A stretch of DNA of 64,000 nucleotides from a bacterium (GTDB lineage Bacteria; UBP14; UBA6098; B30-G16): positions 22,298 through 86,297 of the forward strand of contig JAUWMV010000006.1 of NCBI GenBank assembly GCA_030613005.1. The letters are read 5' to 3'. This document shows positions 3,286 to 64,000 of the stretch, piece after piece (the stretch's first letter is position 1; each line of letters starts with the position of its first letter). The notes under the pieces were generated by a model. The model did no database searches, was not told the origin of the DNA, and worked only from the letters and a program-made list of their open reading frames with translations. The position numbers and the translations under genes were made by a program.

Positions 3286-4107
3286 ATGAATGCTTTAATT
3301 CATACACAGTTTAGCAGACTAAGAATATTCTTCCGAAGACCAGTAAGATCAATTGTTCAACTGTTCTTTGTGGCGATTTTTATTGGTCTGATTATTTTTA
3401 TTATAGATCCAACCGAAATACATGAAATTTGTCCGTGGGCGATCGTAGAATCACCAATTTTGGCAACATTAGTTTCGTGCAATCTCTTTTGGATTTCAGG
3501 CATGATTATTGGGTTAGTCGGCATAATAGCAACATTGTTCTATCCTAGACCATTTTGCGGATGGGTTTGTCCTCTTGGCACACTATTCGATTTCCTCGGA
3601 GATTTGGGTCGAAAACTAAGAATTGTCGCAAAACCTGTTCCTCACTGGCTCAATGAGAAGATGAGATATTTCTCCTTCGGAGTATTGATAATAGTTGTTT
3701 TAGGAACAATTGTTAGCAGACGTGTTATCTGTATTTACGGATGTCCGATTTATTGGCTATGCGCAATGTGGAAGTTATCAATTCCTATATTTACTGCGAT
3801 TTTTGTATTATTTGTGCTTTTGTTGTCGATGAGAGTTAAGAGGGTATTTTGCAGATATATTTGCATTTATGGTGCGTTAACTTCGCTTTTTAGTGCGTTT
3901 GCTCGCAAAAGATTGTATCTAAATCTGGAGGTTTGCGATTATTGCACTCTGTGCAGAGTTTGTCCTATGGGAATAGACGTAATCTATGGGCTTGTTGTAG
4001 AAAGCAGGCATTGCATTTCTTGTGGTGAATGTGTGTATTCATGTGTTAAATCAGCTTTCTCATGGGAAAAAGTGACGTTAGAAATCGATAGGAGAAAAAA
4101 TGGCTGA
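3286..4107 (+). CDS. NapH/MauN/NosR-type membrane polyferredoxin (4Fe-4S binding protein)
   Basis: Polytopic membrane ORF with CX3C(P) motifs (FCGWVCPLG, CIYGCPIYW, CRYICIYG) and two C-terminal ferredoxin clusters (CDYCTLCRVCPMG, CISCGECVYSCV). The start could be TTG 3283 or ATG 3286. Confidence 0.75.
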   Translation: MNALIHTQFSRLRIFFRRPVRSIVQLFFVAIFIGLIIFIIDPTEIHEICPWAIVESPILATLVSCNLFWISGMIIGLVGIIATLFYPRPFCGWVCPLGTLFDFLGDLGRKLRIVAKPVPHWLNEKMRYFSFGVLIIVVLGTIVSRRVICIYGCPIYWLCAMWKLSIPIFTAIFVLFVLLLSMRVKRVFCRYICIYGALTSLFSAFARKRLYLNLEVCDYCTLCRVCPMGIDVIYGLVVESRHCISCGECVYSCVKSAFSWEKVTLEIDRRKNG

Positions 4108-5041
4108 TACTGTTTTCATTATTAGTAAAAATCGCTCTGATTCTTTGAATTTTCACGATCTCCTCGTCGAGAAAGGGTTCGAGGTTTTAATAATTGATAA
4201 TTCTATTGAAGCTATTGAACTTATTAGATCGACTAATCCGGATATGATTATTATCGATGCTGAATCTCCAGAAACCAACGCATTCGACCTTTGCAGAGAT
4301 ATTAAATCAGATTATGGTACTTCGTACATTCCGATTATTATACTTACATCGAGTAAAGATATGTCATACGATTTGGAGGGTTTCGACGGTGCTGATGAAT
4401 ATTTTGTTAAAGGTAAAATCGATTATAATGAAATCATTCCAAAAATGAAAACAATACTTAGAAGAGTTAGGGCTAATATTGATGCCAATCCATTGACGGG
4501 ATTACCCGGAAATGCTCTTATAAAGCAGAAAATAATTAAATCGGTAAGGGGAAACGAGTCGTTTTCCGTTGCGTATTGCGATATCGACAATTTTAAACCG
4601 TTCAATGATTTGTATGGTTTTTCGAAGGGTGATCAGGTTATACTCATGGTTGCTAGAGTTCTGAAGAAGTGCATAAGACGATATGGAAGCACTGGAGATT
4701 TCCTTGGACATCTCGGTGGAGACGATTTTGTCATGGTTGGTAATCCTTTTACTATGAGAGATGTTGCCGGGGAAACCGTAAAGATTGTCAGTAGAAATTC
4801 TAAAAGGTTTTACGATGAAAAGCACAAAAAAGTTGGTGGGATAACTGGTATAGATAGAAATGGAATTCGGAGGTTTTTCCCGTTGTTTGGTTTGACTGTA
4901 GCCATTGTGGACATTGAACCACAAAGCGTTACCGCAACACCAGATCAAATTTCGTTTATTGCATCTAAAATTAAAGGGAAGCTTAAAAGGTACGGGGGCA
5001 ACATTTTTGGTGGATATGAGGTTTTATTAGCTGAAACTTGA
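4100..5041 (+). CDS. response regulator: receiver domain + GGDEF-family nucleotide cyclase domain with a GGDDF motif
   Basis: Receiver domain (VLIIDNS, DMIIIDAESPETNAFDL, IPIIILTS) followed by a GGDEF-like domain (NPLTGLPGN, YCDIDNFKPFNDLYGFSKGD, GHLGGDDFVMV). ATG 4100 overlaps the upstream stop by 8 nt. Confidence 0.8.
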   Translation: MADTVFIISKNRSDSLNFHDLLVEKGFEVLIIDNSIEAIELIRSTNPDMIIIDAESPETNAFDLCRDIKSDYGTSYIPIIILTSSKDMSYDLEGFDGADEYFVKGKIDYNEIIPKMKTILRRVRANIDANPLTGLPGNALIKQKIIKSVRGNESFSVAYCDIDNFKPFNDLYGFSKGDQVILMVARVLKKCIRRYGSTGDFLGHLGGDDFVMVGNPFTMRDVAGETVKIVSRNSKRFYDEKHKKVGGITGIDRNGIRRFFPLFGLTVAIVDIEPQSVTATPDQISFIASKIKGKLKRYGGNIFGGYEVLLAET

Positions 5042-5217
5042 TTTACTCTATAAAATAAACCACAGATTTTTTAAAGATTACCAAGAATTATTTGCAATTT
5101 TATAACTTCGATGATAAATTCTTTCGATTCTTATTAAAGATAAACCGACCATATTAATTTTTATAATTCATTCCTAATGATATTCATTTGGGAAAAAGAA
5201 TTTTTATAATTTCGGTT

Positions 5218-6705
5218 ATGCACGATATAAAAGTTAAATTATTTCTATCTATTCTTCTTTTTGGAACCATTGCGTTTTGTGGAGATTTAACTCTAATGCC
5301 AGACCATTTCCTTAATGAACTTGCTGAAGATTTAGAACTAAGGGGAATTATTCCTGCTCAGCCTGGCTATAGACCGTATTCTACAACTGAATTGTTAAAA
5401 GCAGTTTCGGAGAACCCAGATGTATTTTACACTTCTCGAACAAAAAGAATTCTCAACCGAATAATAGTTCCAGATAGGGCATGGTTTATGTGGACACCTG
5501 GTGTTTGGTATGGCAGCGACTGGGAAAAGGATAAAACAACTGGTTATGGTCGAATGAAAATTGGTATTGGTGGTATTCATAAAGATTTTAGCCTTGTTGG
5601 CATATATAGGTTGGATAGCGGTTGGTATTACGACCCGGAATATTTTGGTGGAAGATGGGAACGAGTTTCAGGTAAGTCGGATCAGGTGTATTTACGATGG
5701 AGAAAAGGGGATTATTCCGTTCAATTGGGGCGAGATTACCTTAGTTATGCTCTTGGGATGTGCCTTTCAGGAAAAAAGCCTATCGAGAAAGTTCAAGCTA
5801 CATTTAGGTTTGGTAAATATTTCAGAACTCACTGGTTTATTGGTCAACTGGATGAATACGTGGATTATGCTGATGAGGAAAAAAAAATTTACGAGCGATA
5901 TCTTGCTGGTCATAGAATAGAAATTTCCAGCGGACCTTTTTTGTTCGCATTTAACGAATTAATGCTTTTCGGTGGTGTTGGAAGGAAAATTGAATTCTAT
6001 TATTTGCTTCCTCTTTACACGCTTCACGGAGAACAGTTGAATCACAGATGGGACGACAACACCTTGTGGAGTATCGATTTAAGGTTTTTGATGCCACCTT
6101 TGAGTCTGTGGGGAGAAATTATGGTGGATGATTTTCAAATCGATAGAGAAACCGCAGCAGATCGAGAACCTATGGAATTTGGTTTTGCATTTCAAACAGA
6201 TTACGGTTTAAGCTTTAAAAATTTTTTCTTGACCCCAAATCTACGGTTCGAGCTTGTGACAAATAGAACATATAACCAGCAACATTCGTGGAATAGATTT
6301 CTATATGAAAATAAATCTCTCGGAACAGAAGTTGGAAATGATTTTCATAAATTTTCAGTTGGAACAAAATTTTTTTCAAAAAATTTTGGTGGGAAGGTTA
6401 ATTTTTTTCATTTAGAAAAGGGAGAGGGTAGAATTGATGATGAATGGATTACTCCATGGATAGAAGACCCAAGTTGGACAGAATCATTTCCCTCTGGAAC
6501 AATTGAAATAAAAAATGGAACTGAGATTTTATTTTTTTGGGACAAAAATATTTATTTGCATAAAAACTTTTCCTTCGACTTTGATCTGCGGTTCGACACA
6601 AAAATTAGTTCGGTTCGAAATGCAGGGCATCATAAGGATAAAACCCGCACGGAATGGGAGTTTAAGATAGATATAGGTATTGAATCTATGATTTTAGGAC
6701 TCTAA
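5218..6705 (+). CDS. putative outer-membrane protein, capsule-assembly Wzi-like
   Basis: Signal peptide MHDIKVKLFLSILLFGTIAFC. The N-terminal helical motif LNELAEDLELRGIIPAQPGYRPYSTTELLKAV resembles the Wzi family, and the rest is aromatic and Gly rich. An alternative TTG start exists at 5188. Confidence 0.5.
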   Translation: MHDIKVKLFLSILLFGTIAFCGDLTLMPDHFLNELAEDLELRGIIPAQPGYRPYSTTELLKAVSENPDVFYTSRTKRILNRIIVPDRAWFMWTPGVWYGSDWEKDKTTGYGRMKIGIGGIHKDFSLVGIYRLDSGWYYDPEYFGGRWERVSGKSDQVYLRWRKGDYSVQLGRDYLSYALGMCLSGKKPIEKVQATFRFGKYFRTHWFIGQLDEYVDYADEEKKIYERYLAGHRIEISSGPFLFAFNELMLFGGVGRKIEFYYLLPLYTLHGEQLNHRWDDNTLWSIDLRFLMPPLSLWGEIMVDDFQIDRETAADREPMEFGFAFQTDYGLSFKNFFLTPNLRFELVTNRTYNQQHSWNRFLYENKSLGTEVGNDFHKFSVGTKFFSKNFGGKVNFFHLEKGEGRIDDEWITPWIEDPSWTESFPSGTIEIKNGTEILFFWDKNIYLHKNFSFDFDLRFDTKISSVRNAGHHKDKTRTEWEFKIDIGIESMILGL

Positions 6706-20000: not shown

Positions 20001-21805
20001 CAATTGTCGACGCCGATGAAACAGTGAATTTCTATATTAACCAGATTCTATACACAGTTACATGTGAAGTCTTAAATTCACTAACTGGTGTTCCTATTGT
20101 AGGTGCAGACGTAGATATAAAAAATCCTACTATTGGAACTCTTTCAGATGTTACCGGTTCTGATGGTAAATGCTCGTTCGATCGTCCTATGGAAAGATAC
20201 GATATCGATGTGAGCTATACGGGTTATGATCCCGCAAGCGAAACTATAATTCTAACTGGAGATACTACTGTTACGTTTAGAATAACACCATCCTTAGTTT
20301 TTGTGGTAGTGAACGCAACTCTTGAAGGCAGAACGGACTATTCTGGAATTACAATTCGAATGACCGGTGAAATGGCAACGGTAACGCCAACAAGTGGAAA
20401 AGTGACATTTACAGATGTTGAATGGGGTAATAAGACGGTAAGTGCAGAAAAAGAATACTTCGCGACGAAAGATACAACATTCCCTGTAATGTCATCAAAG
20501 TCTATTGATATTATGCTTCCTTATTATTGGCCAGTCAATAGATTCTATAGTAGCTTTTCACCCAGAACGAGACCATTATCTGGACCTATGTCACTCACGA
20601 TTTGCTGGAAACCGCCTTCAAGTGCCTATCTTGATCCTTATAACTACGAGCTTTATGATGCAAGTGGAGCCCTAATTCATACTACCGATACCGCCACTGC
20701 CGCTACTGATACATGCTTCACAATCACTCATGGTATTCATGACGGTGGTTCATACTCGTATTACGTTATAACAAAATATACAGATTTAGGTACATCCGTT
20801 CCATCGATTATATATACAGTAGATGTACATGTAGAACCAGATAGAAATCGCGTTCTAATTATCGATTATGACGGTGGAGAAGGATTTACAGAGCTGTTTA
20901 CTCAAGTTCTGAACAACATACATGTGGATTCTACAATGTACACAATAACTAGTCAAGACGAGGATATTACATTAAACGACAAATATCACCTTGACGATTA
21001 CAGAGGAACTCTCGATGGAAGCGGCGTATTTGTGGTTTTCGGAACTAGAGCCACAGATAGTAATTTCCCAATTGTAATGAGAGCAGCAGTAGTCGATTAC
21101 ATTGAACATGGTGGATTTATATTCATCCAGGGACCCGACTTTGCGCAGGATTATAGTGGCACAGGGCTTCTAAACCTGTTTAATTTCACTGGCACCGACG
21201 GTAGCAGAATGATTACTGGTAATGTTCAGAAAGTAGAATCTTTTGAAAGATTCTTTGGAACTGGAATTATGCATTGGAGAGGAAATTATCCATACCAAAC
21301 CGCTGCTGACGACTATGTAGATTTCCTTGACCCCGGAACTGGTACTCAAAAAATATATTATGCCAATGAAGATACACTAAGCGTTGTCTGTGTAATGTTT
21401 GGAAGAGGCGTATACTCTTCGGTTTACCTTGCTTCAGTTACAAGCCCCACTTGGGATATTGCAGGATGTCTTATTGGTGCGATACTAAAACTAAATGGTT
21501 TTCCTCCTCCTCTTGATGTAAAGGAAATTCCGGCAAGCGTTCCGACAGCGTTTATGCTGAATATTTGTCCTAATCCATTCAACTCCACTACCGATATATC
21601 ATTCGATATACCTGAAGCAAATAACGTTGAACTCACTATTTACGATATTACGGGAATACGTGTTGCGGAGCTGTACAAAGGCTCTATGACAGCAGGTCAT
21701 CATGTAATAAACTGGAATGCAGATGGGCTGCAATCGGGACTTTACATGGTTACGCTCAGTTACGATGGTTACTCCATATCGAGTCGAGCTTTCTATGTAA
21801 AATAA
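17099..21805 (+). CDS. large secreted surface protein (1568 aa) with Ig-like and carboxypeptidase-regulatory-like repeats and a T9SS C-terminal sorting domain
   Basis: SD AAAGGAGG lies 6 nt upstream. Signal peptide MRKAIFSLAIFLLLTGSAFA/QS. There are three DxxPP-initiated Ig-like segments and four tandem CarboxypepD_reg-like repeats. The last 84 aa read CPNPFNSTT..LTIYDITGIRV..SGLYMVTL..FYVK. Confidence 0.85.
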   Translation: MRKAIFSLAIFLLLTGSAFAQSTSWEYNITVNAIDHSAFMNITMGMTAGATDGYDGAGLDIIAPPPMPSGFRAYFVAPSTDGFDPLMDPFLIKDTRNNTPDIYEWVVRTEYAVIPGAEIEWVIDDIPDSLHGGNIERAFIGTRAIGSTDEPTDWIDMFVDNSITYHVLEEAVIRITTIGAVDHLPPVVSNLFPPDGAVGVRETELIKFTITDDVSGVDLANTSVELEIDLDKDGLADSLADITTAGVFIPTIGGYNFEYVPGIDYPTESEICVLVNSQDFCDTIPFVMPEVKWCFQIAAIPEADTIPPVYNSWSIGPMGIDTLANPFEHITLRVEDFGVGVNAATIHVYLDGTTMIPDDMIRKTALGVAHMTYDVDIPPYPPVGWDPAGSHTIRVEACDLAGNCSMSLEREFLAMAVGNVWQMLVTIGDGSGSTSDLTFGQHPTATDLFDPDNDFPQFDIPGFYGYFPISDPSYFMYTMLSKDIRKFDYGSMTWDVEVDDVTGSVVTVSWDRTVIPELPDPLRLKLFVGYGISPDAMTWANLKNYPTEFVDIPVGDIIKLQAIVADTSTIDPNPHLQIIKPLSGEYEVSVFTDIEFILTDDIGIDRDSVYVLFDGVNVTSSLDWTVLPNGYGIVYNPGVLDRFTEYEIFLHAEDIDPTRHYLDVAWKFTTGDTACGPVFDLHIKVIDPSIDSSDVIIGVNSDHTIAYDAFDTLDKPLPPPIGFSPYIYNPEAPPFVKWISDFRNNCVRNEWLIRFQDQSALEQIIRWDPTVIFEDEYWCLQIAVAPIAGLPPDDADYVNMKDIGNISIVIGEQAYVRYGTFCGRDKYYVSGNVYSALDSHPIEGAKIWMSGFTDTTDASGFYKVGKIFPGVYNLEVEADDYIDTTISVTIIDHDVVVDVYLELPTFAISGTTYVDGAATGGVDITVVGIGEFSSHPSGYFEIGNLLAGSYELIASYGVGYNADTNDVTIVDADETVNFYINQILYTVTCEVLNSLTGVPIVGADVDIKNPTIGTLSDVTGSDGKCSFDRPMERYDIDVSYTGYDPASETIILTGDTTVTFRITPSLVFVVVNATLEGRTDYSGITIRMTGEMATVTPTSGKVTFTDVEWGNKTVSAEKEYFATKDTTFPVMSSKSIDIMLPYYWPVNRFYSSFSPRTRPLSGPMSLTICWKPPSSAYLDPYNYELYDASGALIHTTDTATAATDTCFTITHGIHDGGSYSYYVITKYTDLGTSVPSIIYTVDVHVEPDRNRVLIIDYDGGEGFTELFTQVLNNIHVDSTMYTITSQDEDITLNDKYHLDDYRGTLDGSGVFVVFGTRATDSNFPIVMRAAVVDYIEHGGFIFIQGPDFAQDYSGTGLLNLFNFTGTDGSRMITGNVQKVESFERFFGTGIMHWRGNYPYQTAADDYVDFLDPGTGTQKIYYANEDTLSVVCVMFGRGVYSSVYLASVTSPTWDIAGCLIGAILKLNGFPPPLDVKEIPASVPTAFMLNICPNPFNSTTDISFDIPEANNVELTIYDITGIRVAELYKGSMTAGHHVINWNADGLQSGLYMVTLSYDGYSISSRAFYVK
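21551..21802 (+). other. T9SS/Por C-terminal sorting domain of the 1568-aa protein
   Basis: FMLNICPNPFNSTTDISFDIPEANNVELTIYDITGIRVAELYKGSMTAGHHVINWNADGLQSGLYMVTLSYDGYSISSRAFYVK. Confidence 0.8.
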
Positions 21806-62017: not shown

Positions 62018-63056
62018 TATTTTGAAGATTTTCAAGTGTAAATCTAAGCAAAAGAAACTGAAGATAATTGGAATTGTACTAATGTTTTTTGGAATATTAG
62101 TGTTGTGGGTGTTATATCAGGCATTTGGAGAAAGCTCACCAATACAATTTGAAAATCCTAAGTACATTGAGATTCCCGTTGGGTCTACAACATATAATGT
62201 AGCGAAAATTCTGGTTAGTGCGGAATTAATATATCGACCTCGGCTTTTCATTATACTTGCAAGGCTTACCGGTTTTGATCGCAAACTTAGAGCAGGTTAT
62301 TTTAAATTCGAATATCGTCCTTCTATGTGGGGAGTTATACGTAAATTAACATCTGGTGGTAGTTTTGATGTTAAATTGACTATTCCAGAGGCTTATACTA
62401 TTTATGAGATTGGTTCTTTAGTGCAATGTGAATTCAAAATAGATTCGCTGCAGTTTGTTACTGCATGTTCTGATACTAAAGTTTTGAGGAAGCTAAATAT
62501 TTCAACCTTATCGATGGAAGGATATTTATTTCCAGAGACATATCTTGTACCAAAGGATATCCAATCTGAGAGTCTAATCGTTCTAATGTACAATGAGTTC
62601 CAGCGACGTTGGCGACCTGAATGGGATATTAGACTCGATGAGATCGAGTTTAGTAAACTTGATATTGTGATATTAGCATCGATTATCGAAGCTGAAGCTC
62701 ATGTGAAAAATGAGCAAAGACAGATATCATCGGTATATCACAATCGTTTGTCTAAAGGAATGTTGCTTCAGGCTGATCCGACTGTAGCGTATGGGATGGG
62801 TAAGATAAATCAACCGCTATTGATTAAGGATTTGAAAACTCCGTCGGTCTATAACACATATATTCACAGTGGGTTACCTGCAGGACCTATATGTAATCCG
62901 GGTGAGGATGCAATTATTGCGGCATTATATCCAGAAACAACTAGTTATTTATATTTTGTTTCTCGACGAGCTGATGGCACGCATAAATTCTCTCGAACAT
63001 TTATAGAACATAATAAAGCCATTCAGGAGATTAAGAGAAATCTAAGAAATAATTGA
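61995..63056 (+). CDS. mltG: endolytic murein transglycosylase MltG (YceG-like)
   Basis: N-terminal TM segment, then LRAGYFKF, EGYLFPETY, ASIIEAEA, LQADPTVAYG and YNTYIHSGLPAGPICNPG. Confidence 0.85.
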   Translation: MISTMKFDILKIFKCKSKQKKLKIIGIVLMFFGILVLWVLYQAFGESSPIQFENPKYIEIPVGSTTYNVAKILVSAELIYRPRLFIILARLTGFDRKLRAGYFKFEYRPSMWGVIRKLTSGGSFDVKLTIPEAYTIYEIGSLVQCEFKIDSLQFVTACSDTKVLRKLNISTLSMEGYLFPETYLVPKDIQSESLIVLMYNEFQRRWRPEWDIRLDEIEFSKLDIVILASIIEAEAHVKNEQRQISSVYHNRLSKGMLLQADPTVAYGMGKINQPLLIKDLKTPSVYNTYIHSGLPAGPICNPGEDAIIAALYPETTSYLYFVSRRADGTHKFSRTFIEHNKAIQEIKRNLRNN

Positions 63057-63103
63057 TTTAACATCATTATCTTGACTAATTTAATGAGTTTTATACATTT
63101 CCC

Positions 63104-63131
63104 TTGACACAGTGGAAGCGTGACTTAAATT
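63104..63131 (+). promoter_or_regulatory. candidate promoter for tRNA-Asp (TTGACA-16-TAAATT)
   Basis: TTGACA at 63104-63109 and TAAATT at 63126-63131, 17 nt before the mature tRNA 5' end. A second candidate (TTGACT-16-TACATT) lies at 63072-63099. Confidence 0.35.
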
Positions 63132-63147
63132 CGACTCTTGTATTAAC

Positions 63148-63222
63148 GGGGTCGTGGTGTAGCTTGGTAAACACGTCGGCCTGTCAAGCCGAAGATCGCC
63201 AGTTCAAATCTGGTCGCCCCCG
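63148..63222 (+). tRNA. tRNA-Asp (anticodon GUC)
   Basis: Manual cloverleaf. Acceptor GGGGTCG/CGCCCCC with one U5-C68 mismatch. D-arm GTGT..CAC. Anticodon stem tcggc/gccga with loop cTGTCaa. T-arm gccag-ttcaaat-ctggt. Discriminator G73, an Asp identity element. CCA is not encoded. Confidence 0.85.
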
Positions 63223-63264
63223 TTATTTGAGAATTTTATGTCCAGTAAATTGATTAAATTTTAG

Positions 63265-63330
63265 TTGTAGGTTGGCAACCACGTCCCGACTGTGTCGGGA
63301 AGATCGCCAGTTCAAATCTGGTCGACCCCG
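63265..63330 (+). pseudogene. 5'-truncated tRNA-like unit 2 (no 5' acceptor strand; altered anticodon arm)
   Basis: ttgtaggttggcaaccac-g-tcccg-actgtgt-cggga-agat-cgccagttcaaatctggt-cgacccc-g. The T-arm and variable region are identical to tRNA-Asp. Confidence 0.75.
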
Positions 63331-63371
63331 TTATTTGAGAATTTTATGTCCAGTAAATTGATTAAATTTAA

Positions 63372-63437
63372 TTGTAACTTGGTAAACACGTCCCGACTGT
63401 GTCGGGAAGATCGCCAGTTCAAATCTGGTCGACCTCG
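63372..63437 (+). pseudogene. 5'-truncated tRNA-like unit 3
   Basis: Same architecture and the same anticodon arm as unit 2. The 3' acceptor strand reads cgacctc. Confidence 0.75.
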
Positions 63438-63479
63438 TTATTTGAGAATTTTATGTCCAGCAAGCCGATTAAATTTTAA

Positions 63480-63505
63480 TTGTAGTTTGGCAAACACGTC
63501 CCGAC
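63480..63505 (+). pseudogene. tRNA-like unit 4, truncated after the 5' side of the anticodon stem
   Basis: ttgtagtttggcaaacacgtcccgac, followed by unrelated sequence (attatcattgggtacc...). Confidence 0.7.
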
Positions 63506-63625
63506 ATTATCATTGGGTACCATGACTATCCTATACAGTTTCTCCGATATTTGATCCTTCTTGCGCAGAATTTTGTCAATGTATGCGGAGTAAATGCGCG
63601 CTATATATGGGTTTGTTCTTTCATA

Positions 63626-63679
63626 TCATTTCAAATACATCACTCTCTTGCTCGCTGCAAGCGTTCCGCTTGACCATTG
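63626..63679 (-). pseudogene. decayed duplicate of the 3' end of a T9SS sorting domain
   Basis: The minus strand reads QWSSGTLAASKRVMYLK*. The DNA matches the end of the gene at 63815 (tcaagcgga ... gcgagcaa.a..gtgatgtatttgaaat) with an internal deletion. No upstream ORF is attached. Confidence 0.55.
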
Positions 63680-63698
63680 CCCCTCCCCGTCACCATCA

Positions 63699-63811
63699 GA
63701 ACCACGGATAACACGGATTAGAAGATTTCACGGATAACCCACATCCCCACCAAATGGTGGTTGGTGATTGGGAATCCCAGTTAATCCGTTAATCTGCATA
63801 ATCTGTGGTTC
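63699..63811. repeat. 113-nt imperfect palindrome with arms built from degenerate 9-mers (CAC-GGATAA-like)
   Basis: Arm A is at 63699-63740 (gaaccacggataacacggattagaagatttcacggataaccc). Arm B is at 63770-63811 (reverse complement gaaccacagattatgcagattaacggattaactgggattccc). They match at 26 of 42 positions. A central mini-palindrome ccacca-aa-tggtgg lies at 63747-63760. Confidence 0.55.
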
Positions 63812-63814
63812 AGA

Positions 63815-64000
63815 CTATTTCAAATACATCACCTTTTTGCTCGCAGTCCGTCCGTCTTCCATCCTCGTTCTGACCAGATATATTCCGCTTGAGATTGATT
63901 CAACTGGTTGCCATATAACGGGTGTTTTATCAAACGCTCTTACGCATTTGCCATTCAAATCGTAGATTTCTACAGTAGCTCCCGAAGATATAATGATGGC
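63815..64000 (-). CDS. 3' end (partial, runs off the window) of a gene encoding a T9SS C-terminal sorting domain
   Basis: Minus-strand frame reads ..GATVEIYDLNGKCVRAFDKTPVIWQPVESISSGIYLVRTRMEDGRTASKKVMYLK*, with the stop at 63815-63817. It is absent from the ORF track because it has no start codon in the window. Confidence 0.7.
   Translation of the reverse strand, partial: AIIISSGATVEIYDLNGKCVRAFDKTPVIWQPVESISSGIYLVRTRMEDGRTASKKVMYLK

Follow-up and report, generated by a model that had tools for sequence, protein, structure and literature searches.

The truncated tRNA-like repeats that follow a tRNA-Asp gene in the window (here, the entire 64-kb stretch of DNA that was analyzed) are, in our best reading, gene-less copies of a widespread cassette in which a small GIY-YIG nuclease gene sits beside a tRNA gene and a partial copy of that tRNA whose arm has been replaced by a conserved GC-rich hairpin. 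We hold this reading with reasonable, but not full, confidence. Searches of the literature for an association of GIY-YIG proteins, tRNA, and hairpins in bacteria returned only the papers on Ssn and SegB, although a description outside the library that could be searched cannot be excluded.

The arrangement itself, as set out in the original prediction, is real. ARAGORN finds a single tRNA in the whole window, tRNA-Asp(GTC) at 63147-63223, and the Rfam tRNA model matches 63148-63222 at 63.4 bits. Tandem Repeats Finder reports an array at 63158-63505 with a period of 108, 3.2 copies, 88% matches, and a score of 540. As assembled, the gene is followed by two full units and one cut unit, each of which restarts in the D arm (TTGTAG...) and lacks the 5' acceptor strand. 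The variable region and T arm (AAGATCGCCAGTTCAAATCTGGTCG) are identical in units 1-3, and a 41-42-nt trailer is repeated. In the two full units the anticodon arm (TCGGC-CTGTCAA-GCCGA) is replaced by TCCCGACTGTGTCGGGA, with 13 of 17 positions differing. The motif made of D arm plus hairpin occurs three times in the window against zero expected. The coordinates are collected in the following table.

Table. Features of the tRNA-Asp repeat array, in window positions
Positions	Strand	Feature	Details
63104..63131	+	Promoter-like site	TTGACA-16-TAAATT, 17 nt upstream of tRNA-Asp; a consensus match only, which could drive read-through into the array; no terminator-like site found in 62900-64000
63148..63222	+	Functional tRNA-Asp(GUC)	Anticodon arm at 63176-63192, anticodon at 63183-63185
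63223..63264	+	Trailer 1	AT-rich spacer repeated with each unit; nearly identical to the trailer of sister strain L002 (one A/G difference near its 3' end)
63265..63330	+	Unit 2	5'-truncated pseudo-tRNA: D arm, hairpin, variable region, T arm, and 3' acceptor strand (CGACCCC); from the trailer through GAAGATCGCCA it matches the L002 unit that precedes the GIY-YIG gene, with 4 mismatches in 87 columns
63284..63300	+	Hairpin of unit 2	TCCCGAC-TGT-GTCGGGA, occupying exactly the 17 nt of the anticodon arm; CCCGAC/GTCGGG class, also seen in loci L002, L022, L032, L042-44, L048, L063, and L077
63331..63371	+	Trailer 2	
63372..63437	+	Unit 3	Same anatomy as unit 2; D arm differs at 4 positions, acceptor 3' strand is CGACCTC; partial Rfam tRNA match
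63391..63407	+	Hairpin of unit 3	Identical to that of unit 2
63438..63479	+	Trailer 3	Variant (CAGCAAGCCGATT) that resembles the single trailer of L003
63480..63505	+	Unit 4	D arm plus only the 5' arm of the hairpin (TCCCGAC), joined at 63505/63506 to unrelated DNA; same junction present in L003

One point of the original description must be corrected. The new arm is not a 5-6-bp stem, but a perfect 7-bp stem with a 3-nt loop; as DNA it folds at -7.1 kcal/mol, and 0 of 200 shuffles fold as well. None of the repeat units qualifies as a functional tRNA gene: ARAGORN calls none of them, and unit 3 scores only 17.4 bits on the tRNA model, below the 29-bit gathering score. Rfam searched at a permissive E-value finds no family for the units, or for the long D-loop inserts, only tRNA hits and noise.

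The most informative comparison is with the same locus in relatives. The sister strain L002, whose MltG is 96% identical, has tRNA-Asp, the trailer, a D arm, TCCCGAC-TTT-GTCGGGA, and GAAGATCGCCA. These are followed by an intact 83-aa ORF (Pfam GIY-YIG, E 2.5e-16), then TGATTAAAT, a D arm, and a second hairpin. The window shares the left flank (trailer, D arm, hairpin, and GAAGATCGCCA) and the right flank (TGATTAAAT, D arm, and hairpin), such that the two alleles differ by the gene between shared flanks, with the ORF replacing the T loop through to the trailer; the right side was judged by eye, as MAFFT did not align it. Another close relative, L003, has only the cut unit 4. The number of full units is thus labile: zero in L003, one plus a gene in L002, and two in the window as assembled, which fits unequal crossover.

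The pattern extends well beyond this locus. We examined 80 metagenomic loci encoding relatives of the L002 ORF; 434 relatives were confirmed in all. Sixty-eight of the 80 abut a same-strand tRNA within 160 nt. tRNA density is 1.48 per kb near the ORF against 0.056 per kb elsewhere in the same loci, a 26-fold local enrichment, with 83 on the same strand and 1 on the opposite strand. In 59 of 84 loci, a GC-rich perfect hairpin is embedded in sequence copied from the adjacent tRNA. The flanks are typically 100% identical to tRNA positions about 14-28 and 46-76, with the arm between them replaced. Partial copies of the 3' type restart at tRNA positions 10-17, as in the window, and sometimes duplicate the trailer or terminator (L016, L019, and L032). 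Gene-less tandem units also occur elsewhere (L063 and L026). Besides L002, hairpins flank the gene on both sides in L014, L023, L025, L027, L029, L031, L032, L039, L042, L076, and L079, where they lie in direct tRNA-derived repeats rather than in inverted orientation.

The hairpin belongs to the cassette. CCCG-N3-16-CGGG density is 1.80 per kb near the ORFs against 0.20 per kb elsewhere. The outer stem is conserved while inner pairs co-vary (A-T, C-G, and G-C), and hairpin classes cluster on the protein tree across different tRNA hosts.

In its full form, the cassette would have three parts: a functional tRNA gene, a small single-domain GIY-YIG nuclease gene of about 80-90 aa, and one or more partial copies of that same tRNA in which one arm, usually the anticodon arm, is replaced by a perfect hairpin of the TCCCG...CGGGA type. 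In the window, the interval between hairpins that holds the gene in L002 holds only T arm, 3' acceptor strand, trailer, and D arm, and in this view units 2 and 3 are therefore “empty” versions of the occupied site. By analogy with Ssn nucleases, the hairpin would be the cognate site that the nuclease binds and nicks when the DNA is single-stranded, and the tRNA-derived sequence on both sides would give homology with the neighboring functional gene. Repair of the breaks by homologous recombination or gene conversion would then expand or contract the array, gain or lose the ORF, and cause adjacent deletions such as the truncation at 63505. The analysis establishes the anatomy, the syntenic occupied allele, the family-wide association with tRNAs and hairpins, and the co-variation of hairpin and protein; recognition of the hairpin by the nuclease, cleavage of ssDNA, and recombination as the engine of copy-number change are inferences.

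Some observations weigh against this reading. A six-frame hmmsearch found no GIY-YIG gene or remnant anywhere in the 64-kb window (best E 3.5), so any nuclease must act in trans from elsewhere in the genome, or the array is a fossil. The hairpin and the ORF are separated by 10-25 nt of tRNA-derived sequence, no simple transposon-like boundary exists, and the model leaves unexplained how the cassette reaches a new tRNA gene.

The closest known system is formed by the Ssn nucleases and their SRM/NTS hairpin repeats (Chenal et al. 2025, PMC11893778), which correspond to the CGTC-tagged REPs/dRS3 repeats (Di Nocera 2013, PMC3733652). Ssn proteins are single-domain GIY-YIG nucleases that bind hairpin repeats sharing the core TTCCCG...CGGGAA, cut ssDNA just upstream, tolerate any loop, and show the gene order hairpin-gene-hairpin. 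The two systems share a small single-domain protein (83-95 aa here against 94 aa), a gene flanked by hairpin repeats, the sequence TCCCG...CGGGA at the hairpin base (NTS: CGTCA-TTCCCGCG-nnn-CGCGGGAA-TCCAG), a conserved outer stem with a loop or inner stem free to vary or grow, and hairpin variants that co-vary with protein variants. The proteins are homologous over their full length: hhalign against a verified Ssn alignment gives 95.5% probability, E 1.5e-8, and 29% identity. However, the profile of this family hits the UPF0213 structure 1ZG2 at E 3e-10, whereas the Ssn profile hits it only at 1e-3, and Ssn-like biochemistry is therefore an extrapolation.

There are further differences. The published SRM consensus, HGTCWYN(0-2)YYVSBRHN(0-5)WNVSBRGN(0-2)RNCYNB, matches none of the 80 loci and not the window array, although it does match the flanks of control Ssn genes in L091-L094, where we verified canonical NTS hairpins; only the core TCCCG...CGGGA is shared, and literal membership in SRM is rejected. 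The hairpins are not dispersed in the genome (only two in 64 kb, both in the array). They are grafted into partial tRNA copies as direct repeats beside a functional tRNA, whereas NTS copies flank ssnA in inverted orientation. The Ssn paper never mentions tRNA, and the four Ssn loci that we examined are not next to tRNAs.

A second analogue is SegB, the free-standing GIY-YIG homing endonuclease of T-even phage tRNA clusters (PMC2330249, PMC13096335). As points of resemblance, it is a GIY-YIG nuclease gene embedded among tRNA genes, the association holds across many tRNA isotypes, the 3' end of the gene shares sequence with the 5' end of a tRNA, and it gives unstable tandem amplification of tRNA-plus-nuclease units by breaks and homologous recombination (PMC13096335). 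Multi-domain homing endonucleases like SegB have a separate DNA-binding domain, for which there is no room here: the proteins are 78-95 aa, and the Pfam GIY-YIG domain spans residues 3-71 of the 83-aa L002 ORF. SegB is found in phages, while the family here gave no hit in the viral, phage, or plasmid collections searched, and no cognate hairpin or arm-substituted partial tRNA is described for SegB. REP/BIME elements with RAYT (IS200/IS605-like) transposases are also similar in that short GC-rich palindromes are clustered in arrays and associated with a dedicated nuclease gene that they flank. Here, however, the associated enzyme is GIY-YIG rather than an HUH Y1 transposase, and the palindromes lie inside tRNA-derived sequence and are not dispersed between genes. 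Searches with PADLOC gave only weak partial hits, and with NCBIfam only a sub-threshold hit to a group I intron endonuclease, and provide no defense-system assignment.

If our reading holds, it explains a class of partial tRNA genes and tRNA-linked repeats that tRNA annotation flags as fragments, without invoking integrases. It also extends the newly described pairing of Ssn-type nuclease and hairpin to a sister family with a different hairpin and a precise genomic niche in tRNA genes, in which each protein clade comes with its own hairpin, giving a ready catalogue of candidate enzyme-site pairs for ssDNA tools. Finally, it provides a cellular counterpart to SegB-driven tRNA amplification in phages, suggesting that nuclease-driven “accordion” dynamics also shape chromosomal tRNA loci. 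The window itself holds only the gene-less relic; the wider pattern carries the interest.

A more far-reaching possibility, which we put forward only tentatively, is that small Ssn-like GIY-YIG nucleases and their cognate hairpins form a distinct, previously unrecognized class of selfish cassettes that live in bacterial tRNA genes. The hairpin would be grafted in place of one arm of a duplicated tRNA segment, and the duplicated sequence would both keep the host gene intact and serve as homology arms. Nicking of the extruded hairpin would then drive homing of the ORF into gene-less units like those in this window, accordion-like array expansion, and adjacent deletions, and tRNA loci would become recombination hot spots without any integrase.

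The original prediction offered three explanations, namely stacked att-site relics, slippage or unequal crossover, and a transcribed array of tRNA-like RNAs or decoys, and as an interpretation it is only partly supported. Its view that the arm was replaced rather than decayed is upheld, because the same TCCCG...CGGGA hairpin sits at the equivalent place in partial copies of many different tRNAs elsewhere. An array that works at the RNA level, as decoys, processing punctuation, or small RNAs, with the hairpin as an RNA stem that abolishes decoding, is unlikely but does not exclude the DNA-level reading. The promoter-like site, the absence of a terminator within the array, the folding of each unit as RNA into the hairpin plus an intact T arm, and the co-variation of inner stem pairs across the family are all compatible with it. 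Against it, the units lack the 5' acceptor strand, so no acceptor stem and no RNase P substrate can form. Across the family the partial copies are sometimes 5'-type and sometimes 3'-type, and the hairpin may sit in the D loop, the anticodon arm, or the T arm, so that only the hairpin is common and no tRNA-like fold is conserved. The stems are almost always perfect Watson-Crick palindromes, and no Rfam family was found.

An assembly artefact, in which a metagenome assembler chained strain variants of a single unit in tandem, is equally unlikely. In its favor, a Logan unitig from a near-identical strain ends exactly at the repeat, trailer 3 resembles the L003 allele while trailers 1-2 resemble the L002 allele, and the C68 mismatch is unique to the window. 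An exact-protein look-up of the window's Nfo gave only a 4.5-kb unitig that ends in the repeat, and that of its MltG found nothing, so neither extended the contig past 64000. However, the junction between the hairpin and the intact T arm (GTCGGGAAGATCGCCAGTTCAAATC) exists in neither L002 nor L003 and shares only 11 nt with either path, so at least one full unit must be real. Units 2 and 3 differ at more than 10 positions, including their left junctions. Even if only one unit is real, the interpretation is unchanged.

Neutral tandem duplication of the tRNA-trailer segment by slippage or unequal crossover, followed by drift, with the hairpin as a chance or quasi-palindrome-correction product that has no link to any nuclease, is less likely still. 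Copy number does differ between close relatives, the D arms of the units are decaying, and no nuclease gene is present in the window. Yet 13 of 17 changes are packed into the arm, while the adjacent 25-nt variable region plus T arm has none, and the result is a perfect palindrome of the same sequence class found in partial copies of Val, Asn, Lys, Gln, and Asp tRNAs in unrelated contigs. The sister strain, moreover, has the nuclease gene inside the array. Unequal crossover probably does explain the change from one to two units, but not the origin of the unit.

Stacked attachment-site relics of integrase-bearing islands or prophages are not supported and very unlikely: although tRNA 3' ends are classic integration sites, a direct repeat of the 3' portion of the gene lies downstream of it, and the region beyond is variable (a 1.7-kb indel between L002 and L003), the units are head-to-tail with no element DNA between them, start in the D arm, include 41 nt of trailer, and carry a foreign hairpin shared with GIY-YIG cassettes in other tRNAs, and no integrase lies in the last 500 bp of the window (as originally noted), in 4.1 kb downstream in L003, or in 2.7 kb downstream in L002, where ORF lists and Pfam show a methyltransferase, a ZU5-domain lipoprotein, and T9SS-tail remnants only. 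The array also has no match in the phage collection by BLASTN, the hairpin-plus-T-arm pattern has none in viral contigs, and the GIY-YIG family has none in viral contigs or plasmids.

Two other possibilities were considered and rejected. The sequence to the right of 63505 looked faintly like the L002 leader plus ATG (ATGACTATCC against ATGACATTCT), but the six-frame search found no GIY-YIG remnant there, and we regard the resemblance as chance. We also checked whether the new arm could be an inversion of the old one, or the anticodon arm of another tRNA (His or Thr), but neither the sequence nor the register fits. Finally, the U5-C68 acceptor mismatch that was originally pointed out in the functional gene is specific to this window, as L001 (a further locus compared), L002, and L003 all have A68 in the functional gene.

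The window contains one tRNA gene, tRNA-Asp(GUC), which was called by ARAGORN and scored 63.4 bits against the Rfam tRNA model. Tandem Repeats Finder reports an array with a period of 108, 3.2 copies, and 88% matches, and reading and aligning the units confirms the anatomy set out in the original prediction, so the observation itself holds. Each unit restarts in the D arm and lacks the 5' acceptor strand, keeps the variable region and T arm unchanged, and repeats a 41-42-nt AT-rich trailer. In units 2 and 3 the anticodon arm, TCGGC-CTGTCAA-GCCGA, is replaced by TCCCGACTGTGTCGGGA. This is a perfect 7-bp palindrome with a 3-nt loop, at -10.9 kcal/mol as RNA and -7.1 kcal/mol as DNA, and 0 of 200 shuffles fold as well as DNA. 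Unit 4 ends right after the 5' arm of the hairpin. The D-arm-plus-hairpin motif occurs only here in the 64 kb.

Coordinates of features in the window and in the retrieved loci (L numbers)
Sequence	Coordinates	Strand	Feature
Window	63148-63222		tRNA-Asp(GUC)
Window	63217		Position 68 of the functional tRNA-Asp
Window	63158-63505		Tandem array
Window	63265		Restart of unit 2 in the D arm
Window	63284-63300		Hairpin of unit 2
Window	63372		Restart of unit 3 in the D arm
Window	63391-63407		Hairpin of unit 3
Window	63480		Restart of unit 4 in the D arm
Window	63505		End of unit 4; junction shared with L003
Window	63815-64000	-	Putative T9SS-type C-terminal sorting tail
Window	63626-63700	-	Decayed second copy of the tail
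Window	20589-20615	+	Match to the SRM degenerate motif
L002 against L003	4575-4600 against 3925-5680		Deletion in L002 relative to L003
L004	2529-2894		23S_rRNA_IVP (PF05635) gene
L008	2900-2985		D-loop insert of two hairpins
L010	1120-1205		D-loop insert of two hairpins
L008	3251-3273		3' end of the ORF within the downstream tRNA
L010	1470-1492		3' end of the ORF within the downstream tRNA
L094	1880-1965		Tandem run of GGAATGACGGGGATGTC-like units

To see the same locus in relatives, one genome per species was scanned with the adjacent MltG protein, which returned two MAG contigs at 96% identity, L002 and L003. L003 has tRNA-Asp, one trailer, and then only the truncated unit (D arm plus TCCCGAC), joined to the same downstream DNA as in the window. 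Relative to L003, the window therefore carries two extra full units. L002 has tRNA-Asp, the trailer, a D arm, the hairpin TCCCGAC-TTT-GTCGGGA, and GAAGATCGCCA, with only 4 mismatches to the window over 87 columns, but instead of the rest of the T arm it then has a 26-nt leader and an intact 83-aa ORF. That ORF is a GIY-YIG nuclease domain (Pfam, E 2.5e-16), and its stop lies in TGATTAAAT, the 3' end of the trailer sequence.

A D arm and a second hairpin (TCTCGAC-TTAAA-GTCGGG) follow in L002, and then a deletion junction relative to L003 that lies 19 nt after this hairpin. About 1.7 kb present in L003, comprising remnants of putative T9SS tails and a 220-aa methyltransferase, is missing. L002 is therefore hairpin-gene-hairpin, whereas in the window the same inter-hairpin interval holds only T arm, acceptor 3' strand, trailer, and D arm. 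All three relatives (L001, L002, and L003) have A68 in the functional tRNA, and the window's own unit 2 also has A68, whereas the functional tRNA-Asp of the window has C68, giving a U5-C68 mismatch. This is either a private substitution or a consensus error in a repeat.

The pattern is general. The first homologues of the L002 ORF already sat in tRNA genes; in one such locus, L004, the 3' end of the ORF overlaps a real tRNA-Met, and upstream lies a copy of the first 28 nt of that tRNA, then TCCCGAT-TCAT-ATCGGGA in place of the anticodon arm, then the start of the T stem, and then the ATG. Another small gene is nested in the same tRNA cluster, a 23S_rRNA_IVP four-helix-bundle gene between one tRNA-Met gene and the GIY-YIG/pseudo-tRNA-Met module. 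A metagenome scan with the protein alignment confirmed 434 loci, of which the best-scoring 80 were fetched. Of these 80, 68 have a same-strand tRNA within 160 nt of the ORF. The density of tRNAs is 1.48 per kb within 400 nt of the ORF against 0.056 per kb elsewhere in the same loci, with 83 on the same strand and 1 on the opposite strand. Hosts include Pro, Asp, Val, Asn, Met, Ala, Ser, His, Lys, Gln, and Gly tRNAs.

Two arrangements recur among these loci. In one, a full tRNA and the ORF are followed by a 3'-type partial copy that starts at tRNA position 10-17, has a hairpin instead of the anticodon arm, and keeps an intact T arm and 3' acceptor strand; sometimes the trailer or terminator is duplicated too (loci L016, L019, and L032). 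This is exactly the anatomy of window units 2-3. In the other, a 5'-type partial copy (acceptor 5' strand, D arm, hairpin, and start of the T stem) is followed by the ORF and then the full tRNA. The tRNA-derived flanks are usually 100% identical to the neighbouring gene. In addition, the last 7-8 codons of many of the nuclease ORFs (ending ...FSGCGAVG and the stop), as in L008, L010, and relatives, are encoded by the 5' acceptor strand and D arm of the downstream functional tRNA, and the stop codon is the TAG in the D loop.

A third form has a roughly 70-nt insert in the D loop of partial tRNA copies (Pro, Asn, and Met), made of two back-to-back hairpins, TCC-CG[stem-loop]CG-A-GGA and TCC-T-CG[stem-loop]CG-GGA. 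The two are joined at the perfect palindrome CGAGGATCCTCG, and the inner stems co-vary between loci. This form was seen in L008 and L010, and also in L020, L025, L027, L033, L037, L065, L069, L073, L079, and L084-L087. Similarly, L045/L070 (tRNA-His) carry a related long insert in the T arm of the downstream partial copy, joined at CGAGCATCCTCG; there is no Rfam match. In all, 59 of 84 loci have a GC-rich perfect hairpin embedded in sequence copied from the adjacent tRNA. Gene-less tandem units like those in the window also occur elsewhere: locus L063 has two 73-nt units before tRNA-Asp, with hairpin CCCGACTCGTCGGG, and locus L026 has two 95-nt units.

The hairpin belongs with the nuclease. 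CCCG-N3-16-CGGG is nine times denser near the ORFs than elsewhere in the loci (1.80 against 0.20 per kb). The outer stem (T)CCCG/CGGG(A) is conserved and the next pairs co-vary, with A-T 39, C-G 7, and G-C 5 at the first inner position and T-A 13, C-G 10, and G-C 3 at the second, whereas loops and inner stems vary freely in length. On a neighbour-joining tree of the proteins, the hairpin classes (CCCGAC, CCCGAG, CCCGGT, TGGCGCC, and the long GAGGATCCTCG form) cluster by protein clade even when the host tRNAs differ. The protein alignment keeps the GIY-YIG catalytic positions: Tyr in VYI and YIG, Arg27, His31/Asn32, and Glu57/62.

The closest known system is the Ssn family (PMC11893778). These are 94-aa single-domain GIY-YIG enzymes (CDD cd10448) that bind a hairpin repeat (NTS, CGTCATTCCCGCGMAVGCGGGAATCYRG) only as ssDNA, cut just upstream of it, tolerate any loop, and typically show the gene order NTS-ssnA-NTS. 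The repeats are the CGTC-tagged REPs, for which no transposase had been found (PMC3733652). We retrieved a control set of Ssn-type proteins and confirmed canonical NTS copies flanking their genes in inverted orientation; downstream of one canonical Ssn-type gene, in L094, a tandem run of GGAATGACGGGGATGTC-like units lies next to the NTS hairpin.

Against that control, the present family is homologous over its full length (hhalign 95.5%, E 1.5e-8, 29% identity), but it is nearer to UPF0213 structures, hitting 1ZG2 at 3e-10 against 1e-3 for the Ssn profile. The published SRM motif matches none of the 80 loci and not the window array, and only the stem base TCCCG...CGGGA is shared. The only match to this degenerate motif in the window (TGTCACTCACGATTTGCTGGAAACCGC) is not a good hairpin and is probably chance. 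The Ssn paper does not mention tRNA, and the Ssn control loci are not next to tRNAs. We therefore treat Ssn, by analogy, as what this system works like, not as the family it belongs to.

A second analogue is phage SegB (PMC13096335), a GIY-YIG homing endonuclease associated with tRNA genes. It drives unstable tandem amplification of tRNA-plus-segB units through breaks and homologous recombination, helped by shared sequence between the 3' end of the gene and a tRNA 5' end. SegB is a phage enzyme, and no hairpin or substituted tRNA copy is described for it. Within the literature that could be searched, we found no description of small cellular GIY-YIG genes nested in tRNA genes with arm-substituted tRNA copies.

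The array is best read as a gene-less relic, or an empty site, of a tRNA-resident GIY-YIG/hairpin cassette, which recalls the Ssn-type pairing of nuclease and hairpin but differs from it in failing the SRM motif and in lying within tRNA-derived sequence. Our analysis establishes the anatomy, the occupied allele in L002 against the empty allele in the window, the family-wide link between ORF, tRNA, and hairpin, and the co-variation of hairpin and protein. The window, which comes from an uncultured FCB-group bacterium whose FtsH is about 55% identical to WOR-3 and Zixibacteria proteins, itself encodes no GIY-YIG protein. What remains inference, with its biochemical steps extrapolated from a sister family, is that the nuclease recognises its hairpin when the DNA is single-stranded and nicks nearby. 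Single-stranded DNA would arise at highly transcribed tRNA loci, at replication forks, or during DNA uptake. It is likewise inferred that the tRNA-derived flanks give homology to the adjacent gene, so that repair by recombination or gene conversion would change unit number, copy the ORF into gene-less units or remove it, and sometimes delete neighbouring DNA.

Although this mechanism does not extend to how a cassette first colonises a new tRNA gene, given that 10-25 nt of host tRNA sequence separates the hairpin from the ORF, it would account for the 0, 1(+ORF), and 2 unit alleles and for the 100% identity of the flanks. It would also account for two rearrangement junctions that lie at or within 19 nt of a hairpin, namely the one shared by the window and L003 and the one in L002.

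The original prediction had offered stacked att-site relics, slippage or unequal crossover, and a transcribed array of tRNA-like RNAs or decoys, and this interpretation is supported only in part. An RNA-level role is not excluded, as there is a promoter-like site and no terminator, but no tRNA-like fold is conserved across the family. Assembly chaining could inflate two units from one; however, the junction of the hairpin with an intact T arm must be real, and our interpretation does not depend on the exact count. Neutral duplication with drift cannot produce the same palindrome class in unrelated tRNAs, although unequal crossover probably did change the unit number. Integrase att relics are not supported, because no integrase is present in the last 500 bp of the window, in 4.1 kb downstream in L003, or in 2.7 kb downstream in L002, the units are contiguous, and the repeat extent is wrong.

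Beyond the array, the minus strand of the window ends with a putative T9SS-type C-terminal sorting tail (...SGIYLVRTRMEDGRTASKKVMYLK before the stop), and about 190 bp further on lies a decayed second copy (...GTLAASKRVMYLK before the stop). Both end on the repeated ATTTCAAATACATCAC, and the same remnants are present in L003.
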